A stretch of 64,000 nucleotides of DNA, from assembly GCA_964408775.1 (NCBI GenBank), contig CAYPAP010000001.1, positions 225,839 through 289,838 on the forward strand, read 5' to 3'. The position numbers and the translations under genes were made by a program. Shown piece by piece: positions 1 to 53,344 of this stretch. The DNA comes from an uncultured Gammaproteobacteria bacterium. Lineage in GTDB: Bacteria > Patescibacteriota > Patescibacteriia > Patescibacteriales > UBA12465. Under the pieces are notes generated by a model that saw only the letters and a program-made list of their open reading frames with translations, did not search any database and was not told the DNA's origin. The first letter of the stretch is position 1; every line of letters begins with the position of its first letter.

Positions 1-1177
1 CTTCAATAGCCCCAATAACTGTATATCTATTTTGGACAGCCTGACTAAACTCGTTATCAATAACACAATTATTGGGCATGGGGTTATCACTATCTAAACA
101 AATCACTAAATCAGACAACACATTAAAATCAGCTTTAACATCGAAGCGAGGTTTAATAACCTTTTTTAAAGAATCAACCATATAGGTTTGATTTGAGAAA
201 GACCTAGGATCAGCGTCAGGCGAGCTATGATTTGAACCAGAATAATCATCTGCGCTTCCCCTAGAAAGCATATCAACCAACCCACCCTCTCTAATATATT
301 TATTAAAAGCTGTTATAGCTACCTGATTAAGAAAAACATTAGCAGCATCTAAAAAAGCATTGCCAGTGAACTTGCCGAGACTTTGCACTTGAGTAGCGTC
401 AACCTTCTGTAGTTCTCTCTGGCCTTGCCCTGGTGGAGTAGTAGCTTTTCCGCCTATATTTCTAACATCCAACCAACCCTGATTTGCCTTTAACTGGTCT
501 TCCTTTTTTTTCTTTTCTTCACCAGCCTCTTCGTCTATGCGAGTAAATAAGGTCAAGGCTGTCCCAATATCATTAGAGGACGGATTAAACATTGTTCCAA
601 CTTTTTTTAAAAAACCAGCCGGATCACTAGAAATACTTTTCCACTTTTCATATTCGTTGGTCCAATTTTGACTTAACTCCTGCCAACCACAATCAATCCG
701 ACCAAAACCAGGATCGTTGAACTGTACTAACCCTAAGCCAATGCTGGCTTGAACAGAAAAATTAGGTCTACACAAATCTACTGCCCACTCTTTCGATAAA
801 TTTTGAATAGCATTAGAAACAAAAGTGTCCGCGGCTTTATTCCCAAAATCACTCCAATAATCATCAACAAAAAGAGGAGTTTGCCCAGCTCCTCCGCTAC
901 CAACCCAGGTAGCAGCATCAAAGGCAAGTTTATTAAGGACTGTTTGAGTAGCAGAAAAGAATGCTTTTGAACCAGCCTTTCCCAATTGTTCCAACACCTT
1001 CCCCACAACCGTCTTCTTTGTTTCAATCGCCGTTCTCTGCGCAACAGCTCCTGGGTCAGTAACAACTCCTGCCGCCCCAACACCAGAAGGATAAACAGCC
1101 AACCCAATAAAAAAAGAGAAAATTAAAAACAGAGTTAAAAACTTCCTCTTGTAAAAGTTGGGTTTAAACTTATTCAT
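1..1177 (-). CDS. secreted or membrane-anchored hypothetical protein (partial; 3' end lies beyond the left edge)
   Basis: Absent from the ORF track because it runs off the edge. A reverse-strand ATG at 1177-1175 opens a frame with no stop down to position 1 (MNKFKPNFYKRKFLTLFLIFSFFIGLAVYPSGVGAAGVVTDPG...). A basic N-terminus followed by a hydrophobic stretch suggests a signal peptide or anchor. No family recognised. Confidence 0.6.
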   Translation of the reverse strand, partial: MNKFKPNFYKRKFLTLFLIFSFFIGLAVYPSGVGAAGVVTDPGAVAQRTAIETKKTVVGKVLEQLGKAGSKAFFSATQTVLNKLAFDAATWVGSGGAGQTPLFVDDYWSDFGNKAADTFVSNAIQNLSKEWAVDLCRPNFSVQASIGLGLVQFNDPGFGRIDCGWQELSQNWTNEYEKWKSISSDPAGFLKKVGTMFNPSSNDIGTALTLFTRIDEEAGEEKKKKEDQLKANQGWLDVRNIGGKATTPPGQGQRELQKVDATQVQSLGKFTGNAFLDAANVFLNQVAITAFNKYIREGGLVDMLSRGSADDYSGSNHSSPDADPRSFSNQTYMVDSLKKVIKPRFDVKADFNVLSDLVICLDSDNPMPNNCVIDNEFSQAVQNRYTVIGAIE

Positions 1178-1199: not shown

Positions 1200-1838
1200 T
1201 TAAAAATCAGCTAAAACCTCCTGATAGATAACCATTAAATCAGCGTCACTAATCTTGTCCAACTCCTCCTGAGAAATGCCCCCTTCCAATAACGCGCCTC
1301 TAATATATTCTGGACTAACATTATCAGGCTGAAGCTCATCAGGAAGCTGTTCAACACTTGGATCAGTGTCATAGTATTCATCCCAGCCCTCTAAAATATT
1401 TTCTAAATCTTTAACACCGTCAGTGGAGTCTCCTTGAGTAGTAGCCTGCCCAGAAGATCCTGAACAATTTTGTCCCTCCGGACATAGGGGATCAGTTTTA
1501 TAAACAAAAATTTCTTCATAATCAGTTAGACCATCGCCGTCAGTATCCTCTAAATAAGGAGATGTTCCATAAATAAATAACTCGTCCCAATCTGAAATTT
1601 TATCGTTATCGGTATCTAATAGTTTTAAATCTAAATTATCCTGATTCAAAGTAGAGGCGGAACAATTAGGTCCAGTACAGCCACTAAGATTAGGGGCAAC
1701 ATTGGACCCAGCAATAACATCACCTTGATACAAAAGAGGATTTTTTAAATTCTGTTTAAAATTCAAAAACCAAGCCGCTATTATTAGAACGCTAAAAACT
1801 CCCAAGATAGCAATGGCGGTCTTACGATTTTTATCCAT
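1200..1838 (-). CDS. membrane-anchored protein with thrombospondin type-3-like Ca-binding repeats
   Basis: N-terminal TM segment (TAIAILGVFSVLIIAAWFL). Repeated DxDxDxxxDxxE motifs (DTDNDKISDWDE, DTDGDGLTDYEE). Acidic C-terminus. Confidence 0.6.
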   Translation of the reverse strand: MDKNRKTAIAILGVFSVLIIAAWFLNFKQNLKNPLLYQGDVIAGSNVAPNLSGCTGPNCSASTLNQDNLDLKLLDTDNDKISDWDELFIYGTSPYLEDTDGDGLTDYEEIFVYKTDPLCPEGQNCSGSSGQATTQGDSTDGVKDLENILEGWDEYYDTDPSVEQLPDELQPDNVSPEYIRGALLEGGISQEELDKISDADLMVIYQEVLADF

Positions 1839-2744: not shown

Positions 2745-2993
2745 TTACTCCTCCCTCTTCATGCCTATTGCCTTGACGGGGCACTCTTTAGCGCAAAGAC
2801 CGCAGCCCTTACAATAATCGTAATTTATTTTAGCTTTTTTCTGTCCTTTTATTTTTGTTAGTTCCGCGGCACTATCAGGACAAATCTTGGCACAAATTCC
2901 GCAAGCAATACATTTTTCTAAATCTATTTCGGGACGATAAGAGCGCCAAGAACCGGTTTTATTTTTTAAAGATGAGTTTGGTTTAACATTCAT
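2745..2993 (-). CDS. porD: 2-oxoacid:ferredoxin oxidoreductase delta subunit (2x[4Fe-4S] ferredoxin)
   Basis: Two CxxCxxCxxxCP clusters (CIACGICAKICP, CKGCGLCAKECP). It lies adjacent to the gamma subunit gene. Confidence 0.8.
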   Translation of the reverse strand: MNVKPNSSLKNKTGSWRSYRPEIDLEKCIACGICAKICPDSAAELTKIKGQKKAKINYDYCKGCGLCAKECPVKAIGMKREE

Positions 2994-3028
2994 AATTATT
3001 TGATATAAAATTTATTATTAATTTTAGA

Positions 3029-3610
3029 TTATTTCATTTTTTTAATAGCTAAAATATTTTTAGCCACGATATCCTGACCTTTATCAGAAAATTTTTCTTT
3101 CACCGCCCTAAAACATCCTTCCATATTTAAAAGCCCCGGAACTCTAGTTAAAGCACCCAACATAGCAGTGTTAACCATGTTTTTACCAAATATTTCCAAG
3201 GCTACTTTACTAGCATCGAAAGAAAAAATATTACCAACCTTGAATCCATTAGGTAACTTCCCTATATTTTTTATTTCTAAAAAAATTTCTTTTGCTTCTT
3301 TATTAGAATTAATAATTATTTGGCTAGTTTTTTTTATTCCTAAAAAAATATCAGCCTTACCAATAAGGGAATCATCTAAAACTATTAGGACATCGGGACT
3401 GCTGACATGTTGGCGAGTTGAGATTACTTTGTCAGAGACCCTAACAAAAGACTGAATTGGAGCACCGCTTCTTTCTACCCCAAAATGAGGAAAGGCCTGA
3501 GCTATGCGACCATCATTAAAAAAAGCAATGGCCAAAATTTCAGCCATAGCTACAACACCCTGACCACCTCTTCCATGAATTCTTATTTCTTTGTTCGAAA
3601 ATTTGCTCAT
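3029..3610 (-). CDS. porC: pyruvate/2-oxoacid:ferredoxin oxidoreductase gamma subunit
   Basis: IRIHGRGGQGVV...FPHFGVERSGAP is the typical POR gamma N-terminus. Confidence 0.85.
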   Translation of the reverse strand: MSKFSNKEIRIHGRGGQGVVAMAEILAIAFFNDGRIAQAFPHFGVERSGAPIQSFVRVSDKVISTRQHVSSPDVLIVLDDSLIGKADIFLGIKKTSQIIINSNKEAKEIFLEIKNIGKLPNGFKVGNIFSFDASKVALEIFGKNMVNTAMLGALTRVPGLLNMEGCFRAVKEKFSDKGQDIVAKNILAIKKMK

Positions 3611-3623
3611 ATTTTATTTTAAA

Positions 3624-4412
3624 TTAATTTTTTAAATTTTGTTTACTATCTAAAACTTCATCTAATAATTCCGCCCAGACGGAAAAAGGAATAGCCCCCT
3701 CACCCACCTTTGCACCATTAATAAACCAGGCAGGAGTGCCCCCAACTTTTAAAAATTGGGCGTCTGAGGCGTCCTTAATAATATTATTTAAATATTTTTG
3801 ATTATCCACACAGTCATAAAACGCATCTATGTCTGATATACCAACCTCGTCAACGATAGCGCCGATACCAATATCTTTGTAAACTGCCTGTCTTTCAAAA
3901 AGCTTATAATACATTGGCCAATATTTATCTTGGTCACCGGCACAACGCGCCACCAAGGCCAAGCTCAAGGAGTCGTCACTTAAAATTGGGAAATCTCTAA
4001 TTATTATTTTAATATCAGAACCATATTTAATAGCCAGGCTAGCAATAGTATTGGAGGCCTCCTTGCAATAAGGGCAAGTAAAGTCAGAAAAAACAACAAT
4101 AGAGATCTCGGCATCTTCATTCCCTAGAAAATAATTATTAAAACCCTCAACCAACCTTTTATTCGACAAATATTCCTCTTGTAAATTTATTTCTATATTT
4201 TTGTTAACTGTCCCCGATTGCATAACCTGACCCAACTCTTCTGGATTATTTAAAAGACGAATTATCAAAAAAAGAAATGACAGGGCATAAACTAAAATAC
4301 CAGCCAAAATCAAGGCTAATAAAATTCCCCACCATTTTTTATACCACCGAGAAGAGGTCTTTTTATTAGCTCCTTTCCTTCTGAGATATTCAATTCTATC
4401 ATCAATACTCAT
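3624..4412 (-). CDS. DsbA-like thiol:disulfide oxidoreductase, N-terminally membrane anchored
   Basis: TM helix (WWGILLALILAGILVYALSFLFLII), a CPYC active-site motif, and a DsbA-like C-terminus (GGTPAWFING). Confidence 0.8.
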   Translation of the reverse strand: MSIDDRIEYLRRKGANKKTSSRWYKKWWGILLALILAGILVYALSFLFLIIRLLNNPEELGQVMQSGTVNKNIEINLQEEYLSNKRLVEGFNNYFLGNEDAEISIVVFSDFTCPYCKEASNTIASLAIKYGSDIKIIIRDFPILSDDSLSLALVARCAGDQDKYWPMYYKLFERQAVYKDIGIGAIVDEVGISDIDAFYDCVDNQKYLNNIIKDASDAQFLKVGGTPAWFINGAKVGEGAIPFSVWAELLDEVLDSKQNLKN

Positions 4413-5333: not shown

Positions 5334-6446
5334 ATGAAAAATAAATCACAAATATTGGAGGGTTCTCGGGCTATTGCTCTAACTGTTAAAAATATTGAGC
5401 CAGCTGTTATTTCAGCTTACCCTATTACCCCACAAACACATATCGTGGAAGACCTAGCCAAATTTAAAGCTGATGGCCAGGCTAAATATGAATATGTTCG
5501 ATCCGAGAGTGAATTTGCAGCCGCTTCTATTGTTTTAGGGGCTTCGGCTAAGGGCGTGCGAGCCTATAGTGCTACCAGCTCTCAGGGATTATTATTAATG
5601 ACCGAGGTTTTATACAATATTTCTGGCATGCGTCTACCAGTAGTAATGACTCTGGCTAATAGGGCTGTTTCTGCTCCCATAAATATTTGGAATGATCACA
5701 GTGATGCCATGGCCGTACGTGACGCTGGATGGATAATGTTTTTTGCTGAAAATAATCAAGAAGCTGTTTGGCAACATTTATTGGCTTTTAAGATTGCCGA
5801 AAAAATGGCGCTACCGGCCATGGTTAATGTTGATGGCTTTATATTGACTCATTGTTATGAGCCGGTTTACGTTCCCGACAAAAAAACTATTAAAAAATTT
5901 CTGCCTACCTACAAGCCAACTAAGGGAACATTTTTAGACTCTAAAAATCCTTTTACCATGGGAGCCTTTATGACACCGGAGCATTATCAAGAAACCAGAA
6001 AAAAATTATCAGCTGATTTTGTGACCACTATTTCGGAAATCAAAAAAGAATACCAACTATTACAGAAGACTATGGGTATTAAAAAGGAAAAAAATACTAC
6101 TGATAATGGTCTATTAGAATATACTGGATCTAAAAATTCCAAAAAAATAATAATTGCTATGGGGTCGGTTATTGGAACTATAAAATCAGCCCTAGCTAGA
6201 GAAAAAAACATTGGAATTTTGAAAATAAAGTCATACCGTCCTTTTCCAGAAAAGGAAATTTATGATATAATTAAAAATGCTAGAGAAATTACAGTAGTAG
6301 AAAAAGCTATTAGCCCTGGAAATCATAGTCCATTATTTATAGACGTAAAAGCAATAGCTTCTGACAAACAAAAAGTTACTAGCTTTGTTAGCGGACTGGG
6401 AGGAAGAGACATTACCGAGGAAGAAATAAGAAAAATAATGAAATAA
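5334..6446 (+). CDS. porA: pyruvate:ferredoxin oxidoreductase alpha subunit
   Basis: G..AIA.....E..VISAYPITPQT..VE and SESEFAAAS..LGAS..G.RAY.ATSSQG match the POR alpha pattern. Confidence 0.85.
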   Translation: MKNKSQILEGSRAIALTVKNIEPAVISAYPITPQTHIVEDLAKFKADGQAKYEYVRSESEFAAASIVLGASAKGVRAYSATSSQGLLLMTEVLYNISGMRLPVVMTLANRAVSAPINIWNDHSDAMAVRDAGWIMFFAENNQEAVWQHLLAFKIAEKMALPAMVNVDGFILTHCYEPVYVPDKKTIKKFLPTYKPTKGTFLDSKNPFTMGAFMTPEHYQETRKKLSADFVTTISEIKKEYQLLQKTMGIKKEKNTTDNGLLEYTGSKNSKKIIIAMGSVIGTIKSALAREKNIGILKIKSYRPFPEKEIYDIIKNAREITVVEKAISPGNHSPLFIDVKAIASDKQKVTSFVSGLGGRDITEEEIRKIMK

Positions 6447-6456
6447 TTATAAATTT

Positions 6457-7317
6457 ATGTTAAATAAGAAAAGTTGGTTTATTTTAATATTTTTATTTTT
6501 CCTATTTGTTTTTTCACCGACGCTAAAAACCAAGGAAGCCGGAGCAACCAACTTTATTCCTCAAGTTACTATCCCTGGCTCTAACTTTCAGGCCGGAACT
6601 TCAACCAAAATCGAGGATAGTACAGCCTCAATTGGAATATATATTAAATCTATTTATAATTATCTTTTAGGGATTGTTGGAATAGTGGCTGCTATTGTTT
6701 TAATGTTAGCTGGAGTCATTTGGTTAACCGCCGGAGGAAGCCCTGACAAGGTTAGTCAAGCAAAAAATCTAATAGCAGGCAGTCTCACTGGTTTGGTTTT
6801 AGTCCTGGTTTCTTATGTGATACTTAGGACTATAAATCCTTATTTGGTAGATTTTAGAGACACAATAATACCAAGAATAGAACCGTCTGAAGATATTGTT
6901 TTTTGTGTTAAGTACAACGAAGGAGAAATGCCAGGAGAGTTAAAAGATGACGGCACAATTATTATTCTGAGAACACAGGCAGATATAGATAAAAATGAAA
7001 AAATAACAAAGGCCGGTGGCAGAATTGAAGACACCGCCTCTCAATGCAAGGAAGACGAAGTCTGTTCTAAAGTTAAATACGAATACCCAAATAATATTTT
7101 TGAATGCACAAAAAAAGGAGATCTAAAGTGCTGCCAATATGAAAAATATAGCACGATAGGAATAACCTGCAAAACAATAACTAATGGAGAATCGTGTCCG
7201 GATCCAAAAGAAAGCTATCCTGATATTAAATTAAAATATATATACGAAGGGGAAAAGTGTGACCCCGCCTACAATGATAGCGGAAGAAATCCTTGCGTCC
7301 CTGGAGGAAAACAATAA
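6457..7317 (+). CDS. Cys-rich secreted protein with a pilin-like two-TM module (TrbC/VirB2-type 'T4SS pilin-like', tentative)
   Basis: Signal peptide. Module IYIKSIYNYLLGIVGIVAAIVLMLAGVIWLTAGGSPDKVSQAKNLIAGSLTGLVLVLVSYVILRTINPYLV is paralogous to the module in ORF 8159-9571. The C-terminal domain is Cys-rich. The family name is from memory and needs an HMM check. Confidence 0.6.
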   Translation: MLNKKSWFILIFLFFLFVFSPTLKTKEAGATNFIPQVTIPGSNFQAGTSTKIEDSTASIGIYIKSIYNYLLGIVGIVAAIVLMLAGVIWLTAGGSPDKVSQAKNLIAGSLTGLVLVLVSYVILRTINPYLVDFRDTIIPRIEPSEDIVFCVKYNEGEMPGELKDDGTIIILRTQADIDKNEKITKAGGRIEDTASQCKEDEVCSKVKYEYPNNIFECTKKGDLKCCQYEKYSTIGITCKTITNGESCPDPKESYPDIKLKYIYEGEKCDPAYNDSGRNPCVPGGKQ

Positions 7318-7321
7318 AAAT

Positions 7322-8152
7322 ATGACGAAATTAAAATCAATATCTTCCGGCCACAACGCCTGTGCCGGATGTGGACAATTATCAGCCGTACAATCAGTAA
7401 TGCGCGCTTTAAACGACGACATTATTATTGCCAATGCTACCGGCTGTCTAGAAGTAACTACCACTGCCTACCCTCAAAGCTCTTGGGGTGTTCCTTGGAT
7501 ACATTCATTATTTGAAAATCCCTCAGCTGTAGCCACTGGCATATCCGCTGCTCTACGCCAACAAAAAAATAATAAAACTAAAGTCGTAGTAATGGCGGGA
7601 GATGGTGGAACATTTGATATTGGCTTGGGGCTAATCAGCGGGATGTGGGAAAGAAAAGAAAATATCCTATACATTTGCTATGATACTGAAAGTTATTCTA
7701 ATACTGGTTTTCAGGCCTCGGGGGCCACTCCTTACGGAGCTCATACTAGCACCTCACCCAAGGGAGATTGCCCAGTAGAAAAAGCACTTTGTAATACCAT
7801 TGGAAATCAATATCAAAAAAAAGACATGATTAGAATTGCTCTAGCCCATGATGTCCCTTACGTCGCTCAAGCTACCGCTGGCTATCCTGATGATATTTTT
7901 AATAAAGTTAAAAAAGCTCAGGAAATGAAAGGGCCGGGGTACATTCAAATTTTATCACCCTGTATTCCCGGTTGGGGACTAAAAACCGACGAAGCAGTAG
8001 AAGTCGGAAAAATGGCAGTCCAAAGCGATCTATATCCCCTACTCGAATACGTAAACGGAAAACTAACAGACAAAAGTGAAGCTTTAAAAAATTCTTCTGA
8101 AATAAAAAAAGAATATTTAAAAAAACAAAAACGTTTTAAACATTTGCTTTAA
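7322..8152 (+). CDS. porB: pyruvate:ferredoxin oxidoreductase beta subunit (TPP-binding)
   Basis: SGHNACAGCG and GDGGTFDIG (TPP motif). The start is moved to the ATG at 7322, 4 nt after the preceding stop. The track start at 7259 overlaps the upstream gene. Confidence 0.85.
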   Translation: MTKLKSISSGHNACAGCGQLSAVQSVMRALNDDIIIANATGCLEVTTTAYPQSSWGVPWIHSLFENPSAVATGISAALRQQKNNKTKVVVMAGDGGTFDIGLGLISGMWERKENILYICYDTESYSNTGFQASGATPYGAHTSTSPKGDCPVEKALCNTIGNQYQKKDMIRIALAHDVPYVAQATAGYPDDIFNKVKKAQEMKGPGYIQILSPCIPGWGLKTDEAVEVGKMAVQSDLYPLLEYVNGKLTDKSEALKNSSEIKKEYLKKQKRFKHLL

Positions 8153-8158
8153 ATTATT

Positions 8159-9571
8159 ATGTTTAAAAAAAATAATAAAAAAATATTTTTAAAAATACCG
8201 GTACTTATTTTTATTTTTTTACTCTCTCTTTTAGTTCTTCCTGGTGCTATAAGCGCTGGACCGATAGGTGAAGAGTGCACTACGTTCGAAGATTGCCCAC
8301 CCAATAATATGTGCATATCCACAAAGACGGGAGGAGATAGAAAATGCTATCCAAAAATAGGTGGTGGTTGCAACAACAATACTGATTGTTCTTATATAGA
8401 AAAAAATTCAGGAATACCGGGAGCTTTTTGCGACTCTACTAAAGCAATTTCAAATTACTCTGGCAGCTGTTTCAGCAACAAGGAAGCCCCTAAGACAACT
8501 ACCGACAGTGGATGTTCCTGGAGAATAGAGAAGCCAGTTCCTGGGGCAACCGGAACCTTCCAAGGAGGTTGCTATAGTATTGAAACTGAGTCCAATTGGG
8601 AAAAATGTAGTTCCATTTCTCAACCAGAAAAAAAATCAGGAGAAAAACTGCTTTGTTGTTGCGGAGAAAGTGGAGAAAATATAAATATTAAAAATAAAAC
8701 ACCCGATCTAAATCCCCTAGGAAATTTACAAATAAAAATACCTGGTCTAGACGAGATTGCTGAAAAACATCCCATTAAATGTGAGGGTGAAGGTGAAAGC
8801 CAAACTTGCAAAATTCCCTGGATAGCAATATATATACACGCTATTTATAATTACTTTTTAGCAATCGCTGGAATTTTGGCTGCCATAGCTTTAATGGTGG
8901 GAGGGGTTATTTGGCTGGTTTCTGCTGGAAATGCTAGCCGAGTTTCAGAGGCTAAAAGCTGGATAACAGGAAGTATTACTGGTTTAGTTATATTATTAAC
9001 CTCCTATGTTTTACTGTACCAAATAAATCCTGAATTAGTGGGAATGAGATATGTAAAACTAGCGGTTATTGACCCAATGGGATACTATGACACTAGTGTT
9101 GACGAAACCAACGAAAATCCCTATATAGATGCCTGCTTAGAAGCAAAAAAAGACAACCTAGGACCATGTAAAGCACTAGGAGAAACAAAGCCAAGTTATT
9201 TAGTTTATAACGCAAACTACCAAAAATATATACACCCCGAAACGTTAGATAAGTTCACCAAGGCTATGGAGTGTGTTAGAGGTAAAAATAATGGTGATAA
9301 TTTATTCTCTATTGTGTCAGCCTGGAGATCTCCAGCCAAACAAATAGAAATGAAGGAATATTGGATAGCCCAAGGAAAACCAGATAATGCTGCGCCCCCC
9401 TGTTGCTCTAATCATAGTTCAGGAAGAGCAATAGATATTTATCGCATCTCTGGAGATAGCATGGTTTGGGATTATAATGAAACAAGCGGTTTAAAAGAAT
9501 GTATGAATAATCAGGGACTATATGCAAACATCAGTGGTGAACCTTGGCATTGGTCTCCTACTGGGAAATAA
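8159..9571 (+). CDS. Cys-rich secreted protein: pilin-like two-TM module fused to a VanY/M15-type (LAS) peptidoglycan peptidase domain
   Basis: Signal peptide and a Cys-rich N-terminal domain. Module IYIHAIYNYFLAIAGILAAIALMVGGVIWLVSAGNASRVSEAKSWITGSITGLVILLTSYVLLYQINPELV. The C-terminus has SNHSSGRAIDI and EPWHW, the H-x-D and H zinc ligands of M15/LAS peptidases. Confidence 0.65.
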   Translation: MFKKNNKKIFLKIPVLIFIFLLSLLVLPGAISAGPIGEECTTFEDCPPNNMCISTKTGGDRKCYPKIGGGCNNNTDCSYIEKNSGIPGAFCDSTKAISNYSGSCFSNKEAPKTTTDSGCSWRIEKPVPGATGTFQGGCYSIETESNWEKCSSISQPEKKSGEKLLCCCGESGENINIKNKTPDLNPLGNLQIKIPGLDEIAEKHPIKCEGEGESQTCKIPWIAIYIHAIYNYFLAIAGILAAIALMVGGVIWLVSAGNASRVSEAKSWITGSITGLVILLTSYVLLYQINPELVGMRYVKLAVIDPMGYYDTSVDETNENPYIDACLEAKKDNLGPCKALGETKPSYLVYNANYQKYIHPETLDKFTKAMECVRGKNNGDNLFSIVSAWRSPAKQIEMKEYWIAQGKPDNAAPPCCSNHSSGRAIDIYRISGDSMVWDYNETSGLKECMNNQGLYANISGEPWHWSPTGK

Positions 9572-9980
9572 GAGAATTTTTGTCCATAGCGTCATTAGCC
9601 AGCCTATCCGCCTCCTTATTATTCTCCCGATAAACATGAGTAAAAGTTATTTTAGAAAAACTTAAAGATAAATTATAAACTTCCAAAAACAAGGGCGCCA
9701 AGTCCTTGTTTTTTACTTTATATTCACGGTTTAATTGTTTAACCACCAACTCGCTATCTAAAAAAACTTCGAGTTCCTGAGCCTGTAACTCTTTGGCTTT
9801 TTTTAAAGCTTCTATTAGGGCAGTATACTCCGCCTGATTATTAGTCTTTACTCCTAAAAATTTAGATATTTCAGCTACCTTTTCTTTTTTATCATTATAC
9901 AAAACCGCTCCAATTCCCGCTGGCCCTGGATTTCCCCGAGCTCCGCCGTCGGTAAAGATTATTAGCTTTTGTTTGTTCAT
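9558..9980 (-). CDS. rnhA: ribonuclease HI
   Basis: IFTDGGARGNPGPAGIG...NNQAEYTALIEAL. The start is taken at the ATG at 9980 (MNKQKL), which abuts the recJ stop. The track start at 10001 would overlap recJ. Confidence 0.85.
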   Translation of the reverse strand: MNKQKLIIFTDGGARGNPGPAGIGAVLYNDKKEKVAEISKFLGVKTNNQAEYTALIEALKKAKELQAQELEVFLDSELVVKQLNREYKVKNKDLAPLFLEVYNLSLSFSKITFTHVYRENNKEADRLANDAMDKNSLISQ

Positions 9981-9981
9981 A

Positions 9982-11739
9982 TTATTTAGTTTTAATATCA
10001 ATAATTTTCAATTGAATATCACAGCGACCATTAAATTTATTAAACTCTAAATTGTAAACAACATCAACATTATCTCCAATATTTAAATTTCCATATTTTT
10101 CACTACCGCCAAAAGAAATTCCCCAAAAATTTTTCATATCCCTGTCATCATGATTTAAAAACTTAATTTTAATATGTTGACTATCAAAGCCCATCTTAAC
10201 AATATCAATAATTTTTAAATTATAGGTAACAAATTTTGGAGTGGGATTATTTTGGCCAAAGGGACTCATTTTTTCAATAGCCTCTACTAATTCATCATTA
10301 ATATCTTCAAAACTAGTTTCAGCATCTATTCTTAATTTTGGTAATAACGACAAACCCAATAATTTTTTATGCGCCAATTTTTTAATACTCTCCGAAAAGG
10401 CCAAAAATTTTTCCTCTGATAAAATAGAAAAACCTCCGGCCATAGGATGACCACCGTATTTATACAAAAATTCTTTATTGTCCTCTAAGGCCTCTACTAA
10501 ATTTAACTCCTCAATGCTACGACCACTCCCCTTATACAGAAAATGGCTCTGCCCGTTTTCATCAATAACCTGCTCCTCTGTTTTTACAACCACTAGAACT
10601 GGCCGATAATATCTCTCTGTTAACCTACCCGCTACTAAACCAATAACTCCCTCATTCCAGGCATTATCAGAAAAATCAGTAACAATAATGATTTCTGGAA
10701 TATTATTTTTATCTATTTGACTTTCAGCTGAAGCCATCACCTCTTCGGTTATTTTTTGTCTTTCAATATTTTTATCATTTAAATCTTGGGCTAATTTTTC
10801 GGCCTCATCCTTATCCTTGCTAATAAGGAGATTTAGAGCTGAATTGGCATGCTTAATACGGCTAGCGGCATTAAGACGCGGACCTAATTGGAAGCCAACA
10901 TTAAAAGTATTTAAATCTCCATTGGCTCCAGTAACTTTTATGAGTTCTTGTAGCCCGACTCTTTTGGTCTCATTTAAAACTTTCAAACCCTCTTGAACTA
11001 TTAGACGATTTTCTCCCACCAAGGGAACCATATCAGCGACTGTTCCAATAACCGCCAAATCTAAACTACGAGACAACAATAATTTTTTATGATCATCTGA
11101 TAATTTTGATTTTTCAATTAAGGCGGAGGCTAACTTGAGAGCTACTCCCACCCCAGCTAAAAACCTAAAGGGGTAACCAGAAGATTTGTCTGAAGAATTA
11201 ATAATTAGACAGTCCGGCAAATCTTCTTTTTTTTCAGGATAAGCATGATGATCGGTTATTATAATATCTAAGCCCAAGCTCTTGGCATACGCAACTTCAT
11301 CCTTGCCCCTAATACCATTGTCTACTGTTATTATTAAATTAAAACCACCTTTTTTTATTTCTTCTATAGCCGGTTTGTTTAAGCCATAACCCTCACTAAC
11401 TCTGTCGGGCAAATAAAAATCAACCTTAGACCTAAATATTTTAAAAACATCATAAAGCAAAGCTGAGGAGGTAACTCCATCAGCATCATAATCACCATAT
11501 ATCATTATTTTATTACCCTCTTTGATGTGCTTAATGATTAAAGCTACTGCCTTATCCATATCCCCAAAAAGAAAGGGATCTAAAAATTTTATTTCCTCGT
11601 CTTCATTAAACCATTTCAAATCTTCGGACAACCTTATATCTCGATTATACAAAAGTTGAAGAATAAAGGGATTAAATTTTTCATTTTCATCCTTAAAGCT
11701 TTCTGGCATTTTAGGGTAAACCTGCCATATTTTATTCAT
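9982..11739 (-). CDS. recJ: single-stranded-DNA-specific exonuclease RecJ
   Basis: DHH motifs (IYGDYDADGVTS, ITVDNG, ITDHH) and the DHHA1 motif GGHPMAGG. Confidence 0.9.
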   Translation of the reverse strand: MNKIWQVYPKMPESFKDENEKFNPFILQLLYNRDIRLSEDLKWFNEDEEIKFLDPFLFGDMDKAVALIIKHIKEGNKIMIYGDYDADGVTSSALLYDVFKIFRSKVDFYLPDRVSEGYGLNKPAIEEIKKGGFNLIITVDNGIRGKDEVAYAKSLGLDIIITDHHAYPEKKEDLPDCLIINSSDKSSGYPFRFLAGVGVALKLASALIEKSKLSDDHKKLLLSRSLDLAVIGTVADMVPLVGENRLIVQEGLKVLNETKRVGLQELIKVTGANGDLNTFNVGFQLGPRLNAASRIKHANSALNLLISKDKDEAEKLAQDLNDKNIERQKITEEVMASAESQIDKNNIPEIIIVTDFSDNAWNEGVIGLVAGRLTERYYRPVLVVVKTEEQVIDENGQSHFLYKGSGRSIEELNLVEALEDNKEFLYKYGGHPMAGGFSILSEEKFLAFSESIKKLAHKKLLGLSLLPKLRIDAETSFEDINDELVEAIEKMSPFGQNNPTPKFVTYNLKIIDIVKMGFDSQHIKIKFLNHDDRDMKNFWGISFGGSEKYGNLNIGDNVDVVYNLEFNKFNGRCDIQLKIIDIKTK

Positions 11740-29791: not shown

Positions 29792-31534
29792 TTAACTTTC
29801 TATAACAACATTCTCTCCTTCTTCTAAATCTTTTTCTGCTATATTTTTATTTTTATCACTATCATTAACTTTGTTTTTCTGTCCATAAAAGCTAACGGGT
29901 TGAGTTTTTTTTAATTCTTCTAGTGTTATAGATAAAACATCGTCTTTTACATCCTCTTTTCTGTCATTTTTTTCCAATTTACTTTTTTCTGGAATATTTT
30001 TTTCAGTCTTAATGTATTTATCACTAGACACTTGTTTTTTCACAGTCGTCTTTATCTCTGGCTTCTTTTTTCTTTCAGCCGGGTTAATACTTAAACATTT
30101 TTTACAATAAACTGGACGAATTCCATCTGGTTTAAAAGGGGTAAAAACATCCACTCCACAAGAAGAACATTTTCCTGGGAATCCCCTGTTTTCATCTTCC
30201 CTACTTTTTTTAATACTTGAGCCCTGACCTGTGTCTTTTTTTTCTGTTTCCTTCTCATCTTGATGCCAACGAACAATTTTTTCCTCTACTATATTTTTCT
30301 TGGTGGCATATTTTTCTCTAGAATAAGCAATCACTTTTTCAGTATTATTAGTTCTTTCTTCTGAGGGTAAAGGAGGGAGACCAATGGCCGAAAACGGATC
30401 AGAGGAAATTCCGTCTATCATTAATTTTAAATACATCTCATACTTTGGTAAATTTACAATATCTTCTTCTGTAAAAACAGGGGTAAATTCTTTAACCAAC
30501 TCCTCGGCATCAGATGCTCCAACTCGGAAAACTATAATTGTGCCTACATTTCCAAAAACAGCCGGCTTAACTCTCTCGTCTAACTGCTCGATATATTGAT
30601 GAGCCATGATTAAATTTAAACGATATTTTCTGGCTTCTGATAAAATGTTGGCGAAACTTTCAGTTGAAAAATTTTGAAACTCATCAATGTATAAATAAAA
30701 ATCTCTTCTTTTTTCCTCAGCAATATCAACTCTACTCATAGCTGCTAATTGAATTTTGGTAATCATCATAGCACCTAATAAGGCTGAATTATCCTCTCCT
30801 ATTCTTCCCTTACTAAGATTCATGATCAAGATTTTTCCCTCATCCATTATTTCTCTCATATCAATAGATGATTTTACTTGACCAACAATATTTCTCATAA
30901 AAGAACTAGACAAAAACTGACCAACCTTATTTTGGATAGGAGAAACCGCTTCAGAAGCAAATTTATCAGCATAGCCAGCAAACTCTTTTTCCCAAAAAGA
31001 TTTTACTACCGGGTCCTTAATATTGGCAACAACTTTTTTACGATACTCCTTATCCGAAAGCATCCGAACCACACCTAAAAGAGTTGACCCTGGGAAATCT
31101 AAAATAGCTAATATTGAATTTCTTAAAATATACTCCAAGCGAGGTCCCCAAGAATCAGCCCATAACTTTTGGAAAACACCAATTAAACCAGAGGCCACCA
31201 AATGTCGAAGATGGGGCTCAACCTGTTCAACTAAATTAAAAGCTATAGGATAATCAATATCAGACGGATTAAAATAAACCACATCATTTATCCTATTATT
31301 GGGAACATATTGAATAATTTTTTCTGCTAAATCTCCATGAGGATCAACTACAGCAACACCCCTTCCGGCTCTAATGTCTTCTATTATCATATTTTCCAAG
31401 ACAGTAGATTTGCCCATACCGGTTTTACCAATCAAATACATGTGCCTTCTTCTGTCATCTACTTTAATACCAAAACGACGCATTTGATTGCGAAAGTTGG
31501 TTTGAGCGAAAAAAATTACATTATCATTATTCAT
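29792..31534 (-). CDS. TraD/VirD4-like (T4SS coupling-protein-like) P-loop ATPase with a C-terminal CxxC...CxxC zinc ribbon
   Basis: Walker A GKTGMGKST, Walker B LYIDEFQNF, and a C-terminal CSSCGVDVFTPFKPDGIRPVYCKKC. The start is set at the ATG at 31534 to avoid overlap with the upstream ORF. Confidence 0.65.
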   Translation of the reverse strand: MNNDNVIFFAQTNFRNQMRRFGIKVDDRRRHMYLIGKTGMGKSTVLENMIIEDIRAGRGVAVVDPHGDLAEKIIQYVPNNRINDVVYFNPSDIDYPIAFNLVEQVEPHLRHLVASGLIGVFQKLWADSWGPRLEYILRNSILAILDFPGSTLLGVVRMLSDKEYRKKVVANIKDPVVKSFWEKEFAGYADKFASEAVSPIQNKVGQFLSSSFMRNIVGQVKSSIDMREIMDEGKILIMNLSKGRIGEDNSALLGAMMITKIQLAAMSRVDIAEEKRRDFYLYIDEFQNFSTESFANILSEARKYRLNLIMAHQYIEQLDERVKPAVFGNVGTIIVFRVGASDAEELVKEFTPVFTEEDIVNLPKYEMYLKLMIDGISSDPFSAIGLPPLPSEERTNNTEKVIAYSREKYATKKNIVEEKIVRWHQDEKETEKKDTGQGSSIKKSREDENRGFPGKCSSCGVDVFTPFKPDGIRPVYCKKCLSINPAERKKKPEIKTTVKKQVSSDKYIKTEKNIPEKSKLEKNDRKEDVKDDVLSITLEELKKTQPVSFYGQKNKVNDSDKNKNIAEKDLEEGENVVIES

Positions 31535-31538
31535 AAAA

Positions 31539-31862
31539 TTATTTCTTATAACTATCAATTAAATCGGCATTTTCATTAATAATTCCAAAAGATCCAGTTA
31601 AATCCTGGAAAGAACTAAAAGCTCCTTTTAAAAACGGTGGTAAATAAACTATAGCTAAAATTAATGGGACTAAAATAAAGACTAATTTAACCCAAAAAAA
31701 TATTTTTTGCCAAACTATATATTTTTTAATATATCGGCTCAATCTCAAAACCTCTTGATTGGTTTTTAGATTTTCTTGCATTAAATTAATCAAAATCTCA
31801 TTATTATCTTCTATTTTCTTTTCATTGTCCTCTATTTTCTTTTCTTCTAATACATTTTCCAT
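31539..31862 (-). CDS. hypothetical membrane protein
   Basis: 107 aa with an acidic N-terminus and one long hydrophobic helix. Confidence 0.45.
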   Translation of the reverse strand: MENVLEEKKIEDNEKKIEDNNEILINLMQENLKTNQEVLRLSRYIKKYIVWQKIFFWVKLVFILVPLILAIVYLPPFLKGAFSSFQDLTGSFGIINENADLIDSYKK

Positions 31863-44313: not shown

Positions 44314-45558
44314 GTGCTTAGTTTTTTATTTTTCAAAATACTAGTAAAGCTATACTACAATTATATCCTAATTTACAAAAAAATAAAAGAAATTAATAAA
44401 AAAAACAATTCTAGGCTATACCTTTTTAAAAAAAATATTTCTATATTTATAATCATCCTTTTATCAGTCGCTATAATATTAGGTAATAAAATTAGAAAAA
44501 CCGAGGCCCAAAGCCTTTCAAATCAGATATATAAAACAACCTTAGCCCAAAATATTGAATCAGATTTTGAAGACTTTGAACCAGAGGAGTTAATAGTGGA
44601 GACGATTGACGATCAAAACTCTGGAATTATCAGCTCACCTAAATATCTAGGTCAGGCTGGAGTTTTAACCCCTAAAATACAAACGGGACAAGGTTCTACG
44701 GAGGAAAGTAATGTTTTTATCTTCTCTGATCACGGAGACACTCTTTCTGGGACGGGTATAATTAATACCGAAGGAGAAAGTATAAAAGAAAGAAATGAGC
44801 CTGTAGAATATATAGTTCAGATTGGAGACACTGTCAGCAGTATTTCTAATAACTTTGGCATAAGTGTTAACACTATATTATGGGAGAATAAATTGACCGC
44901 ACGAAGCATTATCAAGCCGGGGAGTAAATTGGTTATACTACCAGAAGATGGTGTTGTTCATACCGTATCTAGAAATGAAAATATCGGCTCTATCGCTAAA
45001 AAATATTCAGTTGAAATTGACGAAATATTAGAAAAAAATGGGATAACCATAAATGACCCAATAAAAATAGCTCAAACATTGTTTATCCCTGGGGGTAAAA
45101 AAATAGTAGAGACAAGTACCGTGGTAAGCAGATCTTATTCTGGCACAACAATAACTCAAACAACTCCATCAACAAACACTCAACAACCAACTTATACTGG
45201 AGGCAAGCTTCTTTGGCCGACAGTTGGAAATAGAATTACACAATACTACTCATGGAGCCATCGAGGATTAGATGTCGCCAATAAAACGGGCACCCCTCTT
45301 TATGCTTCTGAGGCTGGAACAGTCGAAAGGTCTGGTTGGAGTAATGGATATGGTTATAATGTAATAATAAACCATGGCGGAGGAATGAAAACATTATATG
45401 CTCATGCCTCGAAACTTCGCGTTGTTGCTGGGACCAAGGTTAATCGTGGTGATATTATTGCCGACATGGGATCGACTGGTTGGTCAACTGGACCTCATAT
45501 CCACTTCGAAGTTATAGTTAACGGAGTAAAACAAAACCCCTTAAATTATCTGCGTTAA
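44314..45558 (+). CDS. LysM-domain M23 metallopeptidase (peptidoglycan endopeptidase)
   Basis: Two LysM repeats (YIVQIGDTVSSISNNFGIS; HTVSRNENIGSIAKKYSV). M23 motifs HRGLDV and GSTGWSTGPHIHFEV. GTG start as in the track. Confidence 0.85.
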   Translation: MLSFLFFKILVKLYYNYILIYKKIKEINKKNNSRLYLFKKNISIFIIILLSVAIILGNKIRKTEAQSLSNQIYKTTLAQNIESDFEDFEPEELIVETIDDQNSGIISSPKYLGQAGVLTPKIQTGQGSTEESNVFIFSDHGDTLSGTGIINTEGESIKERNEPVEYIVQIGDTVSSISNNFGISVNTILWENKLTARSIIKPGSKLVILPEDGVVHTVSRNENIGSIAKKYSVEIDEILEKNGITINDPIKIAQTLFIPGGKKIVETSTVVSRSYSGTTITQTTPSTNTQQPTYTGGKLLWPTVGNRITQYYSWSHRGLDVANKTGTPLYASEAGTVERSGWSNGYGYNVIINHGGGMKTLYAHASKLRVVAGTKVNRGDIIADMGSTGWSTGPHIHFEVIVNGVKQNPLNYLR

Positions 45559-45936: not shown

Positions 45937-46013
45937 GGGCCCTTAGCTCAGTTGGCTAGAGCACCTGCTTTGCAAGCAGGGGGTCAAGGGTTCGAGTCCC
46001 TTAGGGTCCACCA
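45937..46013 (+). tRNA. tRNA-Ala (anticodon UGC), CCA encoded
   Basis: Hand-folded: acceptor GGGCCCT/AGGGTCC with G3-U70, D arm GCTC-AGTTGGCTA-GAGC, anticodon arm CCTGC-TTTGCAA-GCAGG, T arm AAGGG-TTCGAGT-CCCTT, then ACCA. Confidence 0.9.
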
Positions 46014-47520
46014 TAGATGACTTCTCACTTAGAGAAGTCATTTTTGTATCTAAAATTAGCGCGGTTCTTTGGGTTCGTAATTTATTTCCATCAAATAGAA
46101 TTCCTTCGGGAAATAGGAACCATTGCAAATCCTGTCTTTGTTTGATTTTTAACGTTTCAATTTCTTTAGATAAATTCTGCATAAAGTTAAGACTGCAATC
46201 TAAAACATCCTGAATATTCTCAGTTCCCTCATAATCTTGTATTTTTATCATTAAACCAGAAATCTCATTCTTTATTTTAGATAATTGCTCTCTTGCTAAA
46301 TCATCGTCAATAATATCTTTTAAATTTTTATTGATAATTAACTCCTGTCTTAATTTAAGCTCTGAAATTTTCTTTTCTGTCAGCCTTTTTAATTGTTTAT
46401 TGGACTGATTGCGATGTTCCCAATTTACAACCAGACTTTCTTTGAGTAATTCAATAAAATCTTTTTTAAATTCAAAGTCTTTAAGATAAACCTTAAACTT
46501 GTCTTCTAGTACATCCCTCTTTGTATTATAACCATTAAGCCCTCTAAAGCGGTAATATGGCAATCTTTGTCTACCATTACCTTTAGACCAACTACCGTCC
46601 AATTTGTGGCCCTTGTCGCTTCTTATAAGGCCCTTTAATGGAAAGTCTGGGTTATTTGTATTGTATCCTGCTTTAGTTTTACCATTTTTACATAAAACAA
46701 ACTGAACTTTATCAAAAAGCTCTTCACTAATGATTGGCTCAAAAGAGCCTTTTACCTCCCCCAAATCAAAACCATTTATATCTATAATTCCTTTGTATAC
46801 CTTATTTCTTATAATTCTATGAAAATACTGTTTACTTATTCTTTTATTCGAACCGAGCATTGCTCCTTCTGCAGTTATAATTTTACGAACTTCTTCTGGT
46901 AAATAAAGACCTGTAGCTAGTAATTCATAAATACGTTTTACGAAAGGAGATTTTTCTTTATCAATAATTATATTTTTTTCACCATTTAAAACACCATTCT
47001 TGTATCCGACTGGAGCTATAAAAACATATCTCCCCGCTCTAACACCATCAATCATCCCCCCTCTACATCTCTCAGCTCTAACATCATTATCAAGTTGAGC
47101 TACATTAGCTAACATATTTTCAACAAAACGGCCAACTGAATTGTTTTCAAACCTTTCCGATGTTGAAACTATTTTTATGCCCAAACTATTAAAAAATACC
47201 CTGAGCTGAGAATAGTCATCTGTATTTCTAGACAACCTGTCTATCTTGTAAATAATCAAAGTATCTATGCTTTTACGGTTAAGCGTACAGTATTTCATCA
47301 TTTTCTGTAATTCTGGTCTTAGAGCGGTTTTTGCGCTTTCACCTTCTTCAACAAAAATACTAGCTATCTCATAGTCATTTTTGTTAGCATAGTCTAGACA
47401 AACCCTTTCTTGGGTATTTAAGCTATTACCCTCATCGACCTGCTCCTTAGTGGAAACTCGGCAATAAATAACAGCTCTACTAGTCTTTTTTAATTCTTTT
47501 TTTATCATAAAATAGTGCAA
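45943..47520 (-). CDS. large serine recombinase (integrase)
   Basis: The resolvase catalytic domain shows AVIYCRVSTKEQ (Ser nucleophile) and IYKIDRLSRN. A recombinase domain and a C-terminal coiled coil follow. The last ~23 codons are the antisense of tRNA-Ala. Confidence 0.85.
   Translation of the reverse strand: MHYFMIKKELKKTSRAVIYCRVSTKEQVDEGNSLNTQERVCLDYANKNDYEIASIFVEEGESAKTALRPELQKMMKYCTLNRKSIDTLIIYKIDRLSRNTDDYSQLRVFFNSLGIKIVSTSERFENNSVGRFVENMLANVAQLDNDVRAERCRGGMIDGVRAGRYVFIAPVGYKNGVLNGEKNIIIDKEKSPFVKRIYELLATGLYLPEEVRKIITAEGAMLGSNKRISKQYFHRIIRNKVYKGIIDINGFDLGEVKGSFEPIISEELFDKVQFVLCKNGKTKAGYNTNNPDFPLKGLIRSDKGHKLDGSWSKGNGRQRLPYYRFRGLNGYNTKRDVLEDKFKVYLKDFEFKKDFIELLKESLVVNWEHRNQSNKQLKRLTEKKISELKLRQELIINKNLKDIIDDDLAREQLSKIKNEISGLMIKIQDYEGTENIQDVLDCSLNFMQNLSKEIETLKIKQRQDLQWFLFPEGILFDGNKLRTQRTALILDTKMTSLSEKSSMVDPKGLEPLTPCLQSRCSSQLS
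45994..46011 (+). repeat. attL core (3' end of tRNA-Ala)
   Basis: GAGTCCCTTAGGGTCCAC, identical to 54210-54227. Confidence 0.8.
46017..46045 (+). terminator. rho-independent terminator after tRNA-Ala (element-borne)
   Basis: ATGACTTCTC-ACTTA-GAGAAGTCAT (perfect 10-bp stem) followed by TTTT. It lies inside the 3' end of the recombinase ORF on the other strand. Confidence 0.6.
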
Positions 47521-48352: not shown

Positions 48353-48494
48353 TTTTATTAGCTAAATAAATATCGATTAAAAAGTTAGACAGATAATTAA
48401 GCTCAGCCACTAAATTATCCTCTTCATTTTCGTCAATGTTTAACTTTTTAAATTTATTTTTTAATGACTTTTTTAGTATCTCATTATCCAACAT
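48345..48494 (-). CDS. candidate 49-aa ORF translationally coupled to the 290-aa gene
   Basis: ATG at 48494 gives MLDNEILKKSLKNKFKKLNIDENEEDNLVAELNYLSNFLIDIYLANKNV. Its stop overlaps the downstream ATG (AAATGTTTAA). Below the track cutoff. Confidence 0.25.
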   Translation of the reverse strand: MLDNEILKKSLKNKFKKLNIDENEEDNLVAELNYLSNFLIDIYLANKNV

Positions 48495-48604
48495 ATAGAC
48501 CAAAGATAAAATTATCTTTTAGCCCAAGTACTCCTTGATACCAAAAAAATTGTTATTAAGTAAAACTAATTATCTGCAATTTTTTCTCGCTCAATAATAA
48601 GTTT

Positions 48605-49429: not shown

Positions 49430-49525
49430 ATATGTATAATTTAATTATAACATTAACCCAATAAAAGTCAAGTGACGAAATAGTATAAATTGAGTAAATT
49501 TAGCTAATTATTAATAAATAATAAT

Positions 49526-50626: not shown

Positions 50627-50630
50627 ATAA

Positions 50631-51638: not shown

Positions 51639-51641
51639 ATT

Positions 51642-51824: not shown

Positions 51825-51826
51825 AT

Positions 51827-52021: not shown

Positions 52022-52023
52022 AA

Positions 52024-53291: not shown

Positions 53292-53344
53292 ATTTAAAAA
53301 TATTTAATCTAAATTTTTATTTTATTAATCATTTATTTACTAAT

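Follow-up and report, generated by a model that had tools for sequence, protein, structure and literature searches.

Pilin-type hairpin proteins with exchangeable outer domains, one of them a predicted M15 peptidase, in a conserved locus of Patescibacteria

Why should two genes for pilin-like membrane proteins, one of which continues into a putative cell-wall peptidase, lie among the genes of a pyruvate:ferredoxin oxidoreductase (PFOR)? The question is raised by a stretch of 64,000 nucleotides (nt), here called the window (GenBank assembly GCA_964408775.1, contig CAYPAP010000001.1, positions 225,839 to 289,838), which is AT-rich (GC about 33%) and whose relatives are Patescibacteria (candidate phyla radiation, CPR), labelled Falkowbacteria, Parcubacteria or 'Patescibacteria group'. 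A preliminary description of the sequence had singled out two open reading frames, ORF1 and ORF2, as sharing a module of two transmembrane helices that is fused, in ORF2, to a peptidoglycan peptidase. The follow-up reported here makes the following picture well supported: both are Sec-exported hairpin proteins with N-out/C-out topology, ORF2 bears an intact extracellular M15B peptidase on a flexible linker, ORF1 is a paralogue with a non-enzymatic, Cys-rich head, a DsbA-like protein is their partner, and the outer domains, or heads, are modular and have been rapidly exchanged. We further propose, giving it about an even chance, that the ORF1/ORF2 pair works with the type IV secretion system (T4SS)/pilus apparatus of Patescibacteria by cutting the wall locally, a VirB1-like job. 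VirB1-type hydrolases cut the wall in this way for T4SSs elsewhere.

ORF1 amino acids (aa) 59–143 and ORF2 aa 222–306 are identical at 47 of 85 positions (55%, BLASTP E=6e-21), which bears out the homology first noticed, with both ORFs as originally delimited. BLASTP found no further significant similarity between the two proteins outside this module, and tblastn found no third copy in the 64-kb window. A gene-call artefact or a chance similarity was rejected on this E value and on conservation across more than 20 species-level loci. The module had been put at about 75 aa; that length proved too short, as the conserved unit exceeds the Pfam model by an upstream segment, (L/P)Q(I/V)xIPG...C...C.(I/V)PW, and a downstream one, NPxLVx(F/M)(R/K). 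The upstream, juxtamembrane segment reads LQIKIPGL...C...C.IPW in ORF2; its ORF1 counterpart, PQVTIPGS, sits straight after the signal peptide. Mean pairwise identity of the module is 58% among 102 homologous proteins that have unrelated flanks. Near-invariant positions of the module are Y, G, W, A-K and N-P, and in the whole-protein alignment almost all near-invariant positions fall inside it.

The preliminary description had placed this module in the TrbC/VirB2-like 'T4SS pilin' family of CPR bacteria. The first half of this name is correct, for both proteins passed the gathering score of Pfam PF18895 T4SS_pilin (36.4 bits for ORF1 and 27.1 bits for ORF2, gathering score 26.6). As in other PF18895 pilins the two-helix hairpin is present, but neither protein is a small stand-alone one of about 100–140 aa. 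The second half did not stand: PF04956 (TrbC/VirB2) scored 10.4 bits (E=0.79, threshold 27.9 bits), hhalign against Agrobacterium tumefaciens VirB2 gave a probability of 4.8%, and the module profile matched no solved conjugative pilin among PDB sequences. Direct membership was therefore rejected, and the module is not filed as TrbC/VirB2. The ORF1 module also matched NCBIfam NF045849, 'Mbov_0395 family pilin-like conjugal transfer protein' of Mycoplasma integrative and conjugative elements, at E=5e-7, below the cut-off. The link to VirB2 is transitive only. Proteins of the P0251 type, matched by the module profile at E<1e-30, carry PF04956 and PF18895 on the same stretch (PF04956 E=1e-42 for P0251 and 2e-28 for P0254), and the Southlakia pilins SEML1_0018 and SEML1_0019 match both families. 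P0250, P0251, P0254, P0256 and P0289 contain 6–8 or more tandem T4SS_pilin modules in one predicted protein of up to 1,147 aa; they could be real poly-hairpins, or pilin arrays merged by gene calling (for example by stop read-through in a recoded lineage).

Hydropathy gives three hydrophobic segments per protein: signal peptide, helix 1 and helix 2. Because a signal segment followed by two further helices forces N-out/C-out parity, both flanking domains are predicted to lie outside the membrane and the short basic loop in the cytoplasm. An outside location also fits the Cys residues, which occur only in the flanks and in even numbers, and the conserved dsbA neighbour. In ORF2, 16 of the 22 Cys are on the N-terminal side, six are in the C-terminal domain and none is in the hairpin, and all 10 Cys of ORF1 are likewise in the flanks; the six C-domain Cys and the two juxtamembrane Cys are invariant in 33 ORF2 orthologues. 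The module of ORF2 thus lies, as first described, between a Cys-rich N-terminal ectodomain and the peptidase, and the hydrophobic segments and the Cys distribution place that peptidase outside rather than in the cytoplasm. A phage holin/endolysin or prophage origin was rejected, the synteny being conserved and chromosomal and N-out/C-out topology with a signal peptide not being holin-like.

The motifs SNHSSGRAIDI and EPWHW, from which a LAS/M15 zinc peptidase had been recognized, are present in ORF2. Across the 33 orthologues R390, Q395, P414-C-C-S-N-H419 (S417-N418-H419), D426, E461, W463 and H464 are all invariant, and with them the complete LAS catalytic set (H419-x6-D426, E461-P-W-H464 and R390). 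We take these residues to be the R...Q, SxHxxGxAxD and ExxH motifs of VanY-type LAS peptidases, a family that includes carboxypeptidases and endopeptidases; the predicted Zn ligands would be H419, D426 and H464 and the catalytic residue E461, with R390/Q395. Pfam alone did not retrieve this domain: ORF2 scored 20.5 bits for VanY and 16 bits for M15_4 (25 bits required in both cases), so that of the profile searches proposed earlier only that for T4SS_pilin passed its gathering score. Stronger VanY matches, down to E=1e-14, were obtained with some relatives among the 102 homologues. As a single sequence the C-terminal domain matched nothing in the PDB, and an orthologue profile and a fold search were needed. 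The profile matched the Listeria phage Ply500 L-Ala-D-Glu peptidase (E=2e-3), VanXYc (E=2.8e-3) and LdcB/DacB, its alignments pairing the ORF2 motifs with SNH..D of Ply500 and with EPWH of VanXYc. Foldseek, run with the AlphaFold2 (AF2) model of the head, returned VanXYc (4mus, E=3e-6), BaLdcB (E=2e-5), VanY-B (E=5e-5) and also LdcB, with probability 1.00. The M15 assignment holds despite the sub-threshold Pfam scores because of the invariant residues, the orthologue profile and the predicted fold; as modelled, the C-terminal domain is an M15B/LAS peptidase with an intact catalytic set, a VanY/LdcB fold and a predicted activity.

ORF2 had been presented as a single fusion; it is instead one member of a large class with interchangeable heads. 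All 102 homologues collected with full-length ORF2, a query that favours long proteins and biases the set towards fusions, have the order N-extension, hairpin, C-extension, with N-extensions of 1–287 aa (the shortest in apparently truncated entries) and C-extensions of 145–295 aa. PF18895 was matched at E<=1e-3 by 98 of these 102 and by 114 of 118 further representatives. Among the 102 homologues, the C-terminal heads matched VanY (19), Peptidase_M15 (10), NlpC/P60 (10), Peptidase_C39_2 (8), Amidase_2 (4), SLT (3), M15_4 (3), M23 (2), 3D (1) and SLT_3 (1), counts that are not additive as Pfam families overlap. The 118 representatives, none of which is in the first set, carry the same hydrolase families (57 family matches, again overlapping and hence fewer proteins). 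The survey suggested with the preliminary description thus shows that VanY/M15, NlpC/P60, C39_2, Amidase_2, SLT, M23 and 3D heads recur. An exhaustive search with the module profile retrieved 47,686 cluster representatives, 9,296 of them at E<=1e-10; only three of its best 150 matches were shorter than 200 aa, and the 118 further representatives come from these 150. Stand-alone short members, of 97–140 aa and 30–55% identical to the module, also exist, and a metagenome scan with a narrow module alignment gave 12 loci. Short PF18895 matches can be artefacts of some assemblies: in L046 (GCA_964214775.1, OZ173682.1), a 917-kb assembly, many genes are fragmented (a tRNA synthetase, ksgA, hairpin fusions), and its 'short pilin' P0107 is a fragment of a fusion.

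More can be learned from the swapping of heads between near-identical genomes than from the single fusion. The slot between porB and rnhA holds an M15 head in the window and in many other loci, a frequency that is inflated because the loci of the genome collection were fished with M15 motifs; it holds a C39_2 head in L047, L049, L050 and L051, and an NlpC/P60 form followed by a 3D-like form in L048. ORF2 and P0007 are 66% identical over aa 36–305, after which similarity ceases and P0007 goes on with C39_2. The closest relative found, L047, shares 93%, 98% and 89% aa identity with the window in RecJ, LepA and PorB, respectively, and 84–86% nt identity in the flanks. Its hairpins are retained, at 84% (ORF1) and 76% (ORF2) nt identity, and three blocks that correspond to the outer domains have no nt similarity to the window (Table 1); a C39-like head replaces the M15 head. 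L003, which is more distant (RecJ 78%), is colinear with the window through all heads at 74%. Because the near relative has unrelated heads while the distant one stays colinear, the heads are exchanged by recombination on a constant stalk and independently of organismal descent. Turnover this rapid, in genomes so alike, speaks against a fixed housekeeping role, but it might also result from a pressure that acts on every exposed surface protein, such as pressure by phages.

The layout of polymorphic toxins and evolved effectors, a constant N-terminal part with recombining C-terminal heads, is found here. It is also what would be expected of 'evolved pilins', hairpin subunits that polymerise, alone or sparsely among short PF18895 pilins, and so insert into or nucleate the VirB2-like pilus of the Patescibacteria T4SS. 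Exchangeable adhesion heads (ORF1 type) and wall-degrading heads (ORF2 type) would then be held along the filament or at its tip, at a distance from the cell, where they could bind and cut the host wall. The module is homologous to short stand-alone pilins (97–140 aa), which form essential arrays in a cultivated relative; its AF2 helices, of 34 and 31 residues, are longer than a membrane crossing requires (about 20 residues); and, since both hairpin termini point outward, any added domains would stand out from a filament. Conjugative pilin helices are in this range of lengths. However, domains of about 185 and 170 aa on each subunit would crowd a packed filament, the module does not directly resemble TrbC/VirB2 or any solved conjugative pilin, and no T4SS genes are nearby. 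Nor does an immunity gene directly follow ORF2, because the convergent, overlapping rnhA gene leaves no room for an ORF, and a pilus has still to be demonstrated for any Patescibacterium (PMC12857230). We consider evolved pilins a clearly unlikely explanation; were it true, these proteins would be to the T4SS what evolved VgrG/PAAR effectors are to their own machine, and their heads would turn over in step with the wall chemistry of the host.

The conserved segments on either side of the hairpin lead to another reading, in which ORF2 is a pro-protein. The hairpin would be an export or maturation carrier, and cleavage near PQ(V/I)xIPG and/or NPxLVxF(R/K) would set a soluble hydrolase (and the N-domain) free in the wall or the medium and leave a short mature pilin. 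In short pilins the IPG segment comes right after the signal peptide and NPxL lies near the C-terminus, so the fusions look like a short pilin with domains beyond both mature ends; moreover, head homology breaks straight after the NPxL segment. Processing at both ends is known from conjugative pilins, for example RP4 TrbC. As no candidate maturation peptidase is conserved in the locus, and as the conserved segments could equally well be structural, we give processing of this kind very little chance.

Which part of the locus belongs with the hairpin genes can be judged from its relatives. The order dsbA-porG-porD-porA-[ORF1-like]-porB-[ORF2-like]-rnhA-recJ-lepA-murJ recurs in more than 20 distinct species-level loci. 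L017 and L019 have no por genes and retain dsbA-hairpin-hairpin-rnhA, and in L055 arrays of hairpin fusions come after dsbA. With few exceptions dsbA adjoins the hairpin genes in related loci, including the por-less L017, L019 and L055 and the T4SS-linked L035 described below. Since the dsbA/hairpin pairing persists in loci without por genes, the stable core of the locus is DsbA plus the hairpin proteins. In the window the spacers between porA, ORF1, porB and ORF2 are 10, 4 and 6 nt long (the porB ATG, preceded by GGAGG, is at 7322, 4 nt past the ORF1 stop). These short spacers, with no terminator-like site between the four genes, suggest that porA-ORF1-porB-ORF2 is one operon. The genes of the four PFOR subunits do not form one block but alternate with envelope genes (2745-3610 on the minus strand and 5334-8152 on the plus strand). 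This interleaving is conserved in more than 20 species-level genomes (loci L001–L031 and L047–L054), and the dsbA-porG-porD block is inverted in the closest relatives of the window compared with the other loci.

Apart from the peptidase, the outer domains have no assigned family. The C-terminal domain of ORF1 matched neither a Pfam nor an NCBIfam family, and a fold search of the PDB gave nothing below E=0.5; it is a non-enzymatic, Cys-rich head and possibly a binding domain. For the N-terminal domain of ORF2, weak matches to small Cys-rich Pfam families (Nodulin_late, DUF7107) and noise-level fold matches were obtained, and nothing better.

Taken together, ORF1 and ORF2 form a conserved pair of envelope proteins that are exported by Sec and share one PF18895-type hairpin as their core. 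This hairpin, in the cytoplasmic membrane with both ends outside, is the constant stalk, from which hang disulfide-rich outer domains that are exchanged by recombination; a docking role is probable too, since a mere anchor would not call for conservation of this degree. The ORF2 head, on a flexible linker of about 25 residues, could cut stem peptides in the peptidoglycan next to the outer face of the membrane. The disulfides of both proteins would come from the neighbouring DsbA-like oxidoreductase, and the target may be the cell's own wall, that of a partner cell at the contact site, or both, options that take in the two uses first suggested (breaching a host wall, or remodelling the own wall at a surface appendage).

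The proposed connection with a T4SS draws on what is known of the family and on one related locus. PF18895 proteins have been described as VirB2-like pilins of Patescibacteria T4SSs related to monoderm conjugation systems; their genes are often grouped in arrays close to virB4, and a recognisable VirB1 is missing from most of the Patescibacteria genomes that have VirB2-like genes (PMC12102498). In Southlakia epibionticum the T4SS and six short PF18895 pilins (SEML1_0014-0019) are essential, as are two proteins encoded beside VirB4, one with an M15B/DD-peptidase-like C-terminal domain and one of the lysozyme/Cys-peptidase type (PMC10633639). Proximity to virB4 or other T4SS genes is not found in the window; it is found in the Kerfeldbacteria locus L035, where the order is VirB3-like, split VirB4 (P-loop_TraG E=5e-29), hairpin with Cys-rich head, DsbA, and hairpin-M15. 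About 20 kb away from the hairpin genes, the window encodes a type IV coupling-protein-like ATPase that has a CxxC-x17-CxxC zinc ribbon and matches the NCBIfam TraD subfamily at E=2e-12, far below the cut-off. Its neighbours are a glycosyltransferase, DivIC, a penicillin-binding protein (Peptidase_S11 + DPBB) and FtsE/FtsX, not other T4SS genes; it is a possible distant partner of the hairpin pair, and this link is uncertain.

Several observations weigh against a function with the T4SS. First, a search of the window and of 10 kb on either side of it revealed no VirB4, VirB6 or short pilin gene, and the hairpin genes sit amid housekeeping genes, apparently co-transcribed with PFOR subunits. Second, the closest structural relatives of the ORF2 head (VanY, VanXY and LdcB) are carboxypeptidases, which trim stem peptides and do not open the wall, and for C39_2 heads peptidoglycan hydrolysis is only putative. 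Third, L030 (3834-9362) and L033 (186-5746), from another Patescibacteria lineage, contain arrays of three fusions after genes for an FG-GAP + YkuD L,D-transpeptidase, a TagA/WecG-NUDIX fusion, GltX and an M23 peptidase; the upstream ORFs scanned there include no T4SS genes, and this setting, a conserved group of cell-wall genes, fits ordinary wall metabolism. Finally, in L035 both hairpin genes are frame-broken at the same point in helix 1 (6680-6900 and 9850-10040). These breaks may be due to a collapsed assembly repeat, to decay or to programmed frameshifting; past the break the sequence is identical in both genes.

ORF2 could accordingly be a housekeeping membrane-anchored DD-/LD-carboxypeptidase (VanY-, DdcY- or LdcB-like) that trims the cell's own stem peptides, for example to feed L,D-transpeptidases; the hairpin would then be a plain two-pass anchor without any T4SS link. 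The carboxypeptidases at the top of the fold search likewise have a membrane or lipid anchor. The genes lie in a conserved chromosomal region with murJ, recJ and lepA alongside, the fusion arrays of L030 and L033 lie beside wall enzymes (YkuD L,D-transpeptidase, TagA, M23), and only the coupling-protein-like ATPase represents T4SS genes nearby. However, a trimming enzyme should not be so replaceable as to leave its slot to C39-like, NlpC/P60 and 3D heads, and the head has been replaced in a genome whose housekeeping proteins are 93–98% identical. In addition, the identity of the hairpin across the 102 proteins is above what a simple anchor needs, and the trio of hairpin, DsbA and hairpin-M15 adjoins VirB4 in L035. 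On balance a housekeeping carboxypeptidase appears somewhat unlikely, and local wall cutting for the T4SS/pilus apparatus is the reading that we retain.

Table 1. Coordinates of the hairpin genes, their parts and other features of the window
Feature	Position	Strand	Evidence or remark
Giant gene of about 2,721 aa, 3' part	1-1107	-	faint CBM_4_9; the window begins inside the gene
TSP3-repeat protein	1200-1838	-	
DsbA/MdbA-like thiol-disulfide oxidoreductase, membrane-anchored	3624..4412	-	Pfam Thioredoxin_4 E=1e-23, DSBA E=8e-16
porA, PFOR alpha subunit	5334..6446	+	POR_N E=3.5e-68, PFOR_II; first gene of the packed porA-ORF1-porB-ORF2 run
ORF1, 286 aa	6457..7317	+	signal peptide, short N-segment, pilin-type hairpin, Cys-rich C-terminal ectodomain
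ORF1 signal peptide, aa 1-30	6457..6546	+	hydrophobic segment aa 5-26; predicted cleavage after AGA; AxA-like sites end the signal peptide in orthologues
ORF1 two-helix T4SS_pilin-type module, aa 56-135	6622..6861	+	PF18895; AF2 helices 56-91, 96-126
ORF1 C-terminal ectodomain, 10 Cys, beta-rich	6862..7314	+	AF2 predicted local distance difference test (pLDDT) score ~80
No nt similarity to L047	6879-7307		ORF1 head
porB, thiamine pyrophosphate (TPP)-binding beta subunit	7322..8152	+	TPP_enzyme_C E=3.5e-17; between both hairpin genes
No nt similarity to L047	8146-8699		ORF2 signal peptide and N-domain
ORF2, 470 aa	8159..9571	+	signal peptide, Cys-rich N-ectodomain, hairpin, linker, M15 peptidase
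ORF2 variable N-terminal Cys-rich ectodomain, aa 34-175, 14 Cys	8258..8683	+	AF2 pLDDT 80-92 for aa 111-170
ORF2 conserved juxtamembrane segment NPLGNLQIKIPGL...C208...C217, aa 176-218	8684..8812	+	conserved across differently headed fusions
ORF2 two-helix T4SS_pilin-type module, aa 219-298, ends QINPELVGMRY	8813..9052	+	PF18895; AF2 helices 221-254, 259-289
ORF2 flexible linker, aa 299-320	9053..9118	+	pLDDT <50 at aa 304-313; similarity to relatives with other heads stops in this segment
No nt similarity to L047	9055-9579		ORF2 M15 head
ORF2 VanY/LdcB-like M15B (LAS) zinc peptidase head, aa 321-470	9119..9568	+	AF2 pLDDT >90
rnhA	9558-10001	-	convergent with ORF2, overlapping its 3' end
Type IV coupling-protein-like ATPase	29792..31558	-	TrwB_AAD_bind, TraG-D_C (weak), DUF87 (weak)
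LysM + Peptidase_M23 wall hydrolase	44314-45558	+	beside the integrated element
Probable integrated element	~45943-53300		GC 27-30%
Large serine recombinase	45943-47520	-	in the integrated element
SacI-like restriction enzyme	49526-50626	-	in the integrated element
C5 DNA methylase	50631-51638	-	in the integrated element
HTH_17 excisionase-like gene	~51642-51824		in the integrated element

Other features of the window are listed in the same table. The giant gene and the TSP3-repeat gene at its left end are conserved upstream of the locus in relatives. The probable integrated element also contains a MazG-like gene and ORFs of unknown function, and the LysM + Peptidase_M23 hydrolase encoded beside it provides a conventional contrast to the hairpin-tethered enzyme.

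The PF18895 family and its T4SS association are already known, and domain databases would show the fusion architectures; for the hydrolase fusions as such, head swapping and the PFOR-interleaved conserved locus, no published description was found in the literature. The only Patescibacterium open to genetics depends on its T4SS and pilin array for epibiotic growth (PMC10633639; PMC11665869). Hairpin proteins with interchangeable peptidoglycan hydrolases are a concrete candidate for the missing VirB1 activity, and a possible handle on how Patescibacteria deal with their own or a host wall. The hypothesis is directly testable, as the head is small, confidently modelled and has clear active-site residues. 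In addition, surveys that equate every PF18895 match with a 'VirB2 pilin' also count membrane-tethered enzymes. The class as a whole points to a modular surface tool for cell-wall work, of which the hairpin is constant and the outer domains are swappable.

Among known systems, the short PF18895 pilins of Patescibacteria (SEML1_0014-0019; PMC10633639, PMC12102498) come closest to the module of ORF1 and ORF2, with which they share the Pfam family, the signal peptide, the two-helix hairpin with its short basic loop, the NPxL end and 30–55% identity. They are proteins of 100–190 aa without extra domains, usually encoded in arrays near virB4 and about 25% identical to one another (PMC12102498), whereas the hairpin studied here lies between ectodomains of 30–220 and 150–170 aa, is strongly conserved, and is encoded in a housekeeping/PFOR locus without virB4 nearby. 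A. tumefaciens VirB2, RP4 TrbC and F TraA have a like design, with a signal peptide, two hydrophobic helices, a basic loop on the cytoplasmic or lumen side and both ends outside, although the ORF1/ORF2 module gives no direct significant match to them. To our knowledge, no classical VirB2 protein has a fused enzymatic domain. VgrG/PAAR/Hcp fusions of type VI secretion systems and polymorphic toxins resemble the fusions in having a constant part and a C-terminal head that is swapped at a sharp breakpoint, independently of phylogeny; this likeness is an analogy only, as the machine is different and ORF2 has no immunity gene after it.

With VanY, VanXY, LdcB (DacB) and Ply500 the ORF2 head shares its predicted fold (Foldseek E=3e-6 to 1e-4, TM-score about 0.5 on the target) and the same motifs, including the upstream R...Q. 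VanY, VanXY and LdcB act outside the membrane from a membrane tether, as is predicted for ORF2. Identity to them is about 20%, however, and the ORF2 subfamily has its own PCCSNH motif and six invariant Cys; its tether is a pilin-type hairpin, in contrast to the single helix or lipid of VanY/LdcB-type enzymes. Finally, the VirB1-type hydrolases of monoderm systems (PrgK of pCF10, TraG of pIP501, TcpG, CD419/TrsG), as well as SEML1_0006 and SEML1_0007, are membrane-tethered, serve a secretion machine and have variable catalytic domains (SLT, CHAP/NlpC, M23, M15B). They differ from ORF2 in that they have no pilin hairpin and are encoded inside the T4SS cluster, whereas the ORF2 gene is outside any visible one; yet SEML1_0007 has its M15B-like domain next to VirB4, and L035 likewise puts a hairpin-M15 protein beside VirB4.

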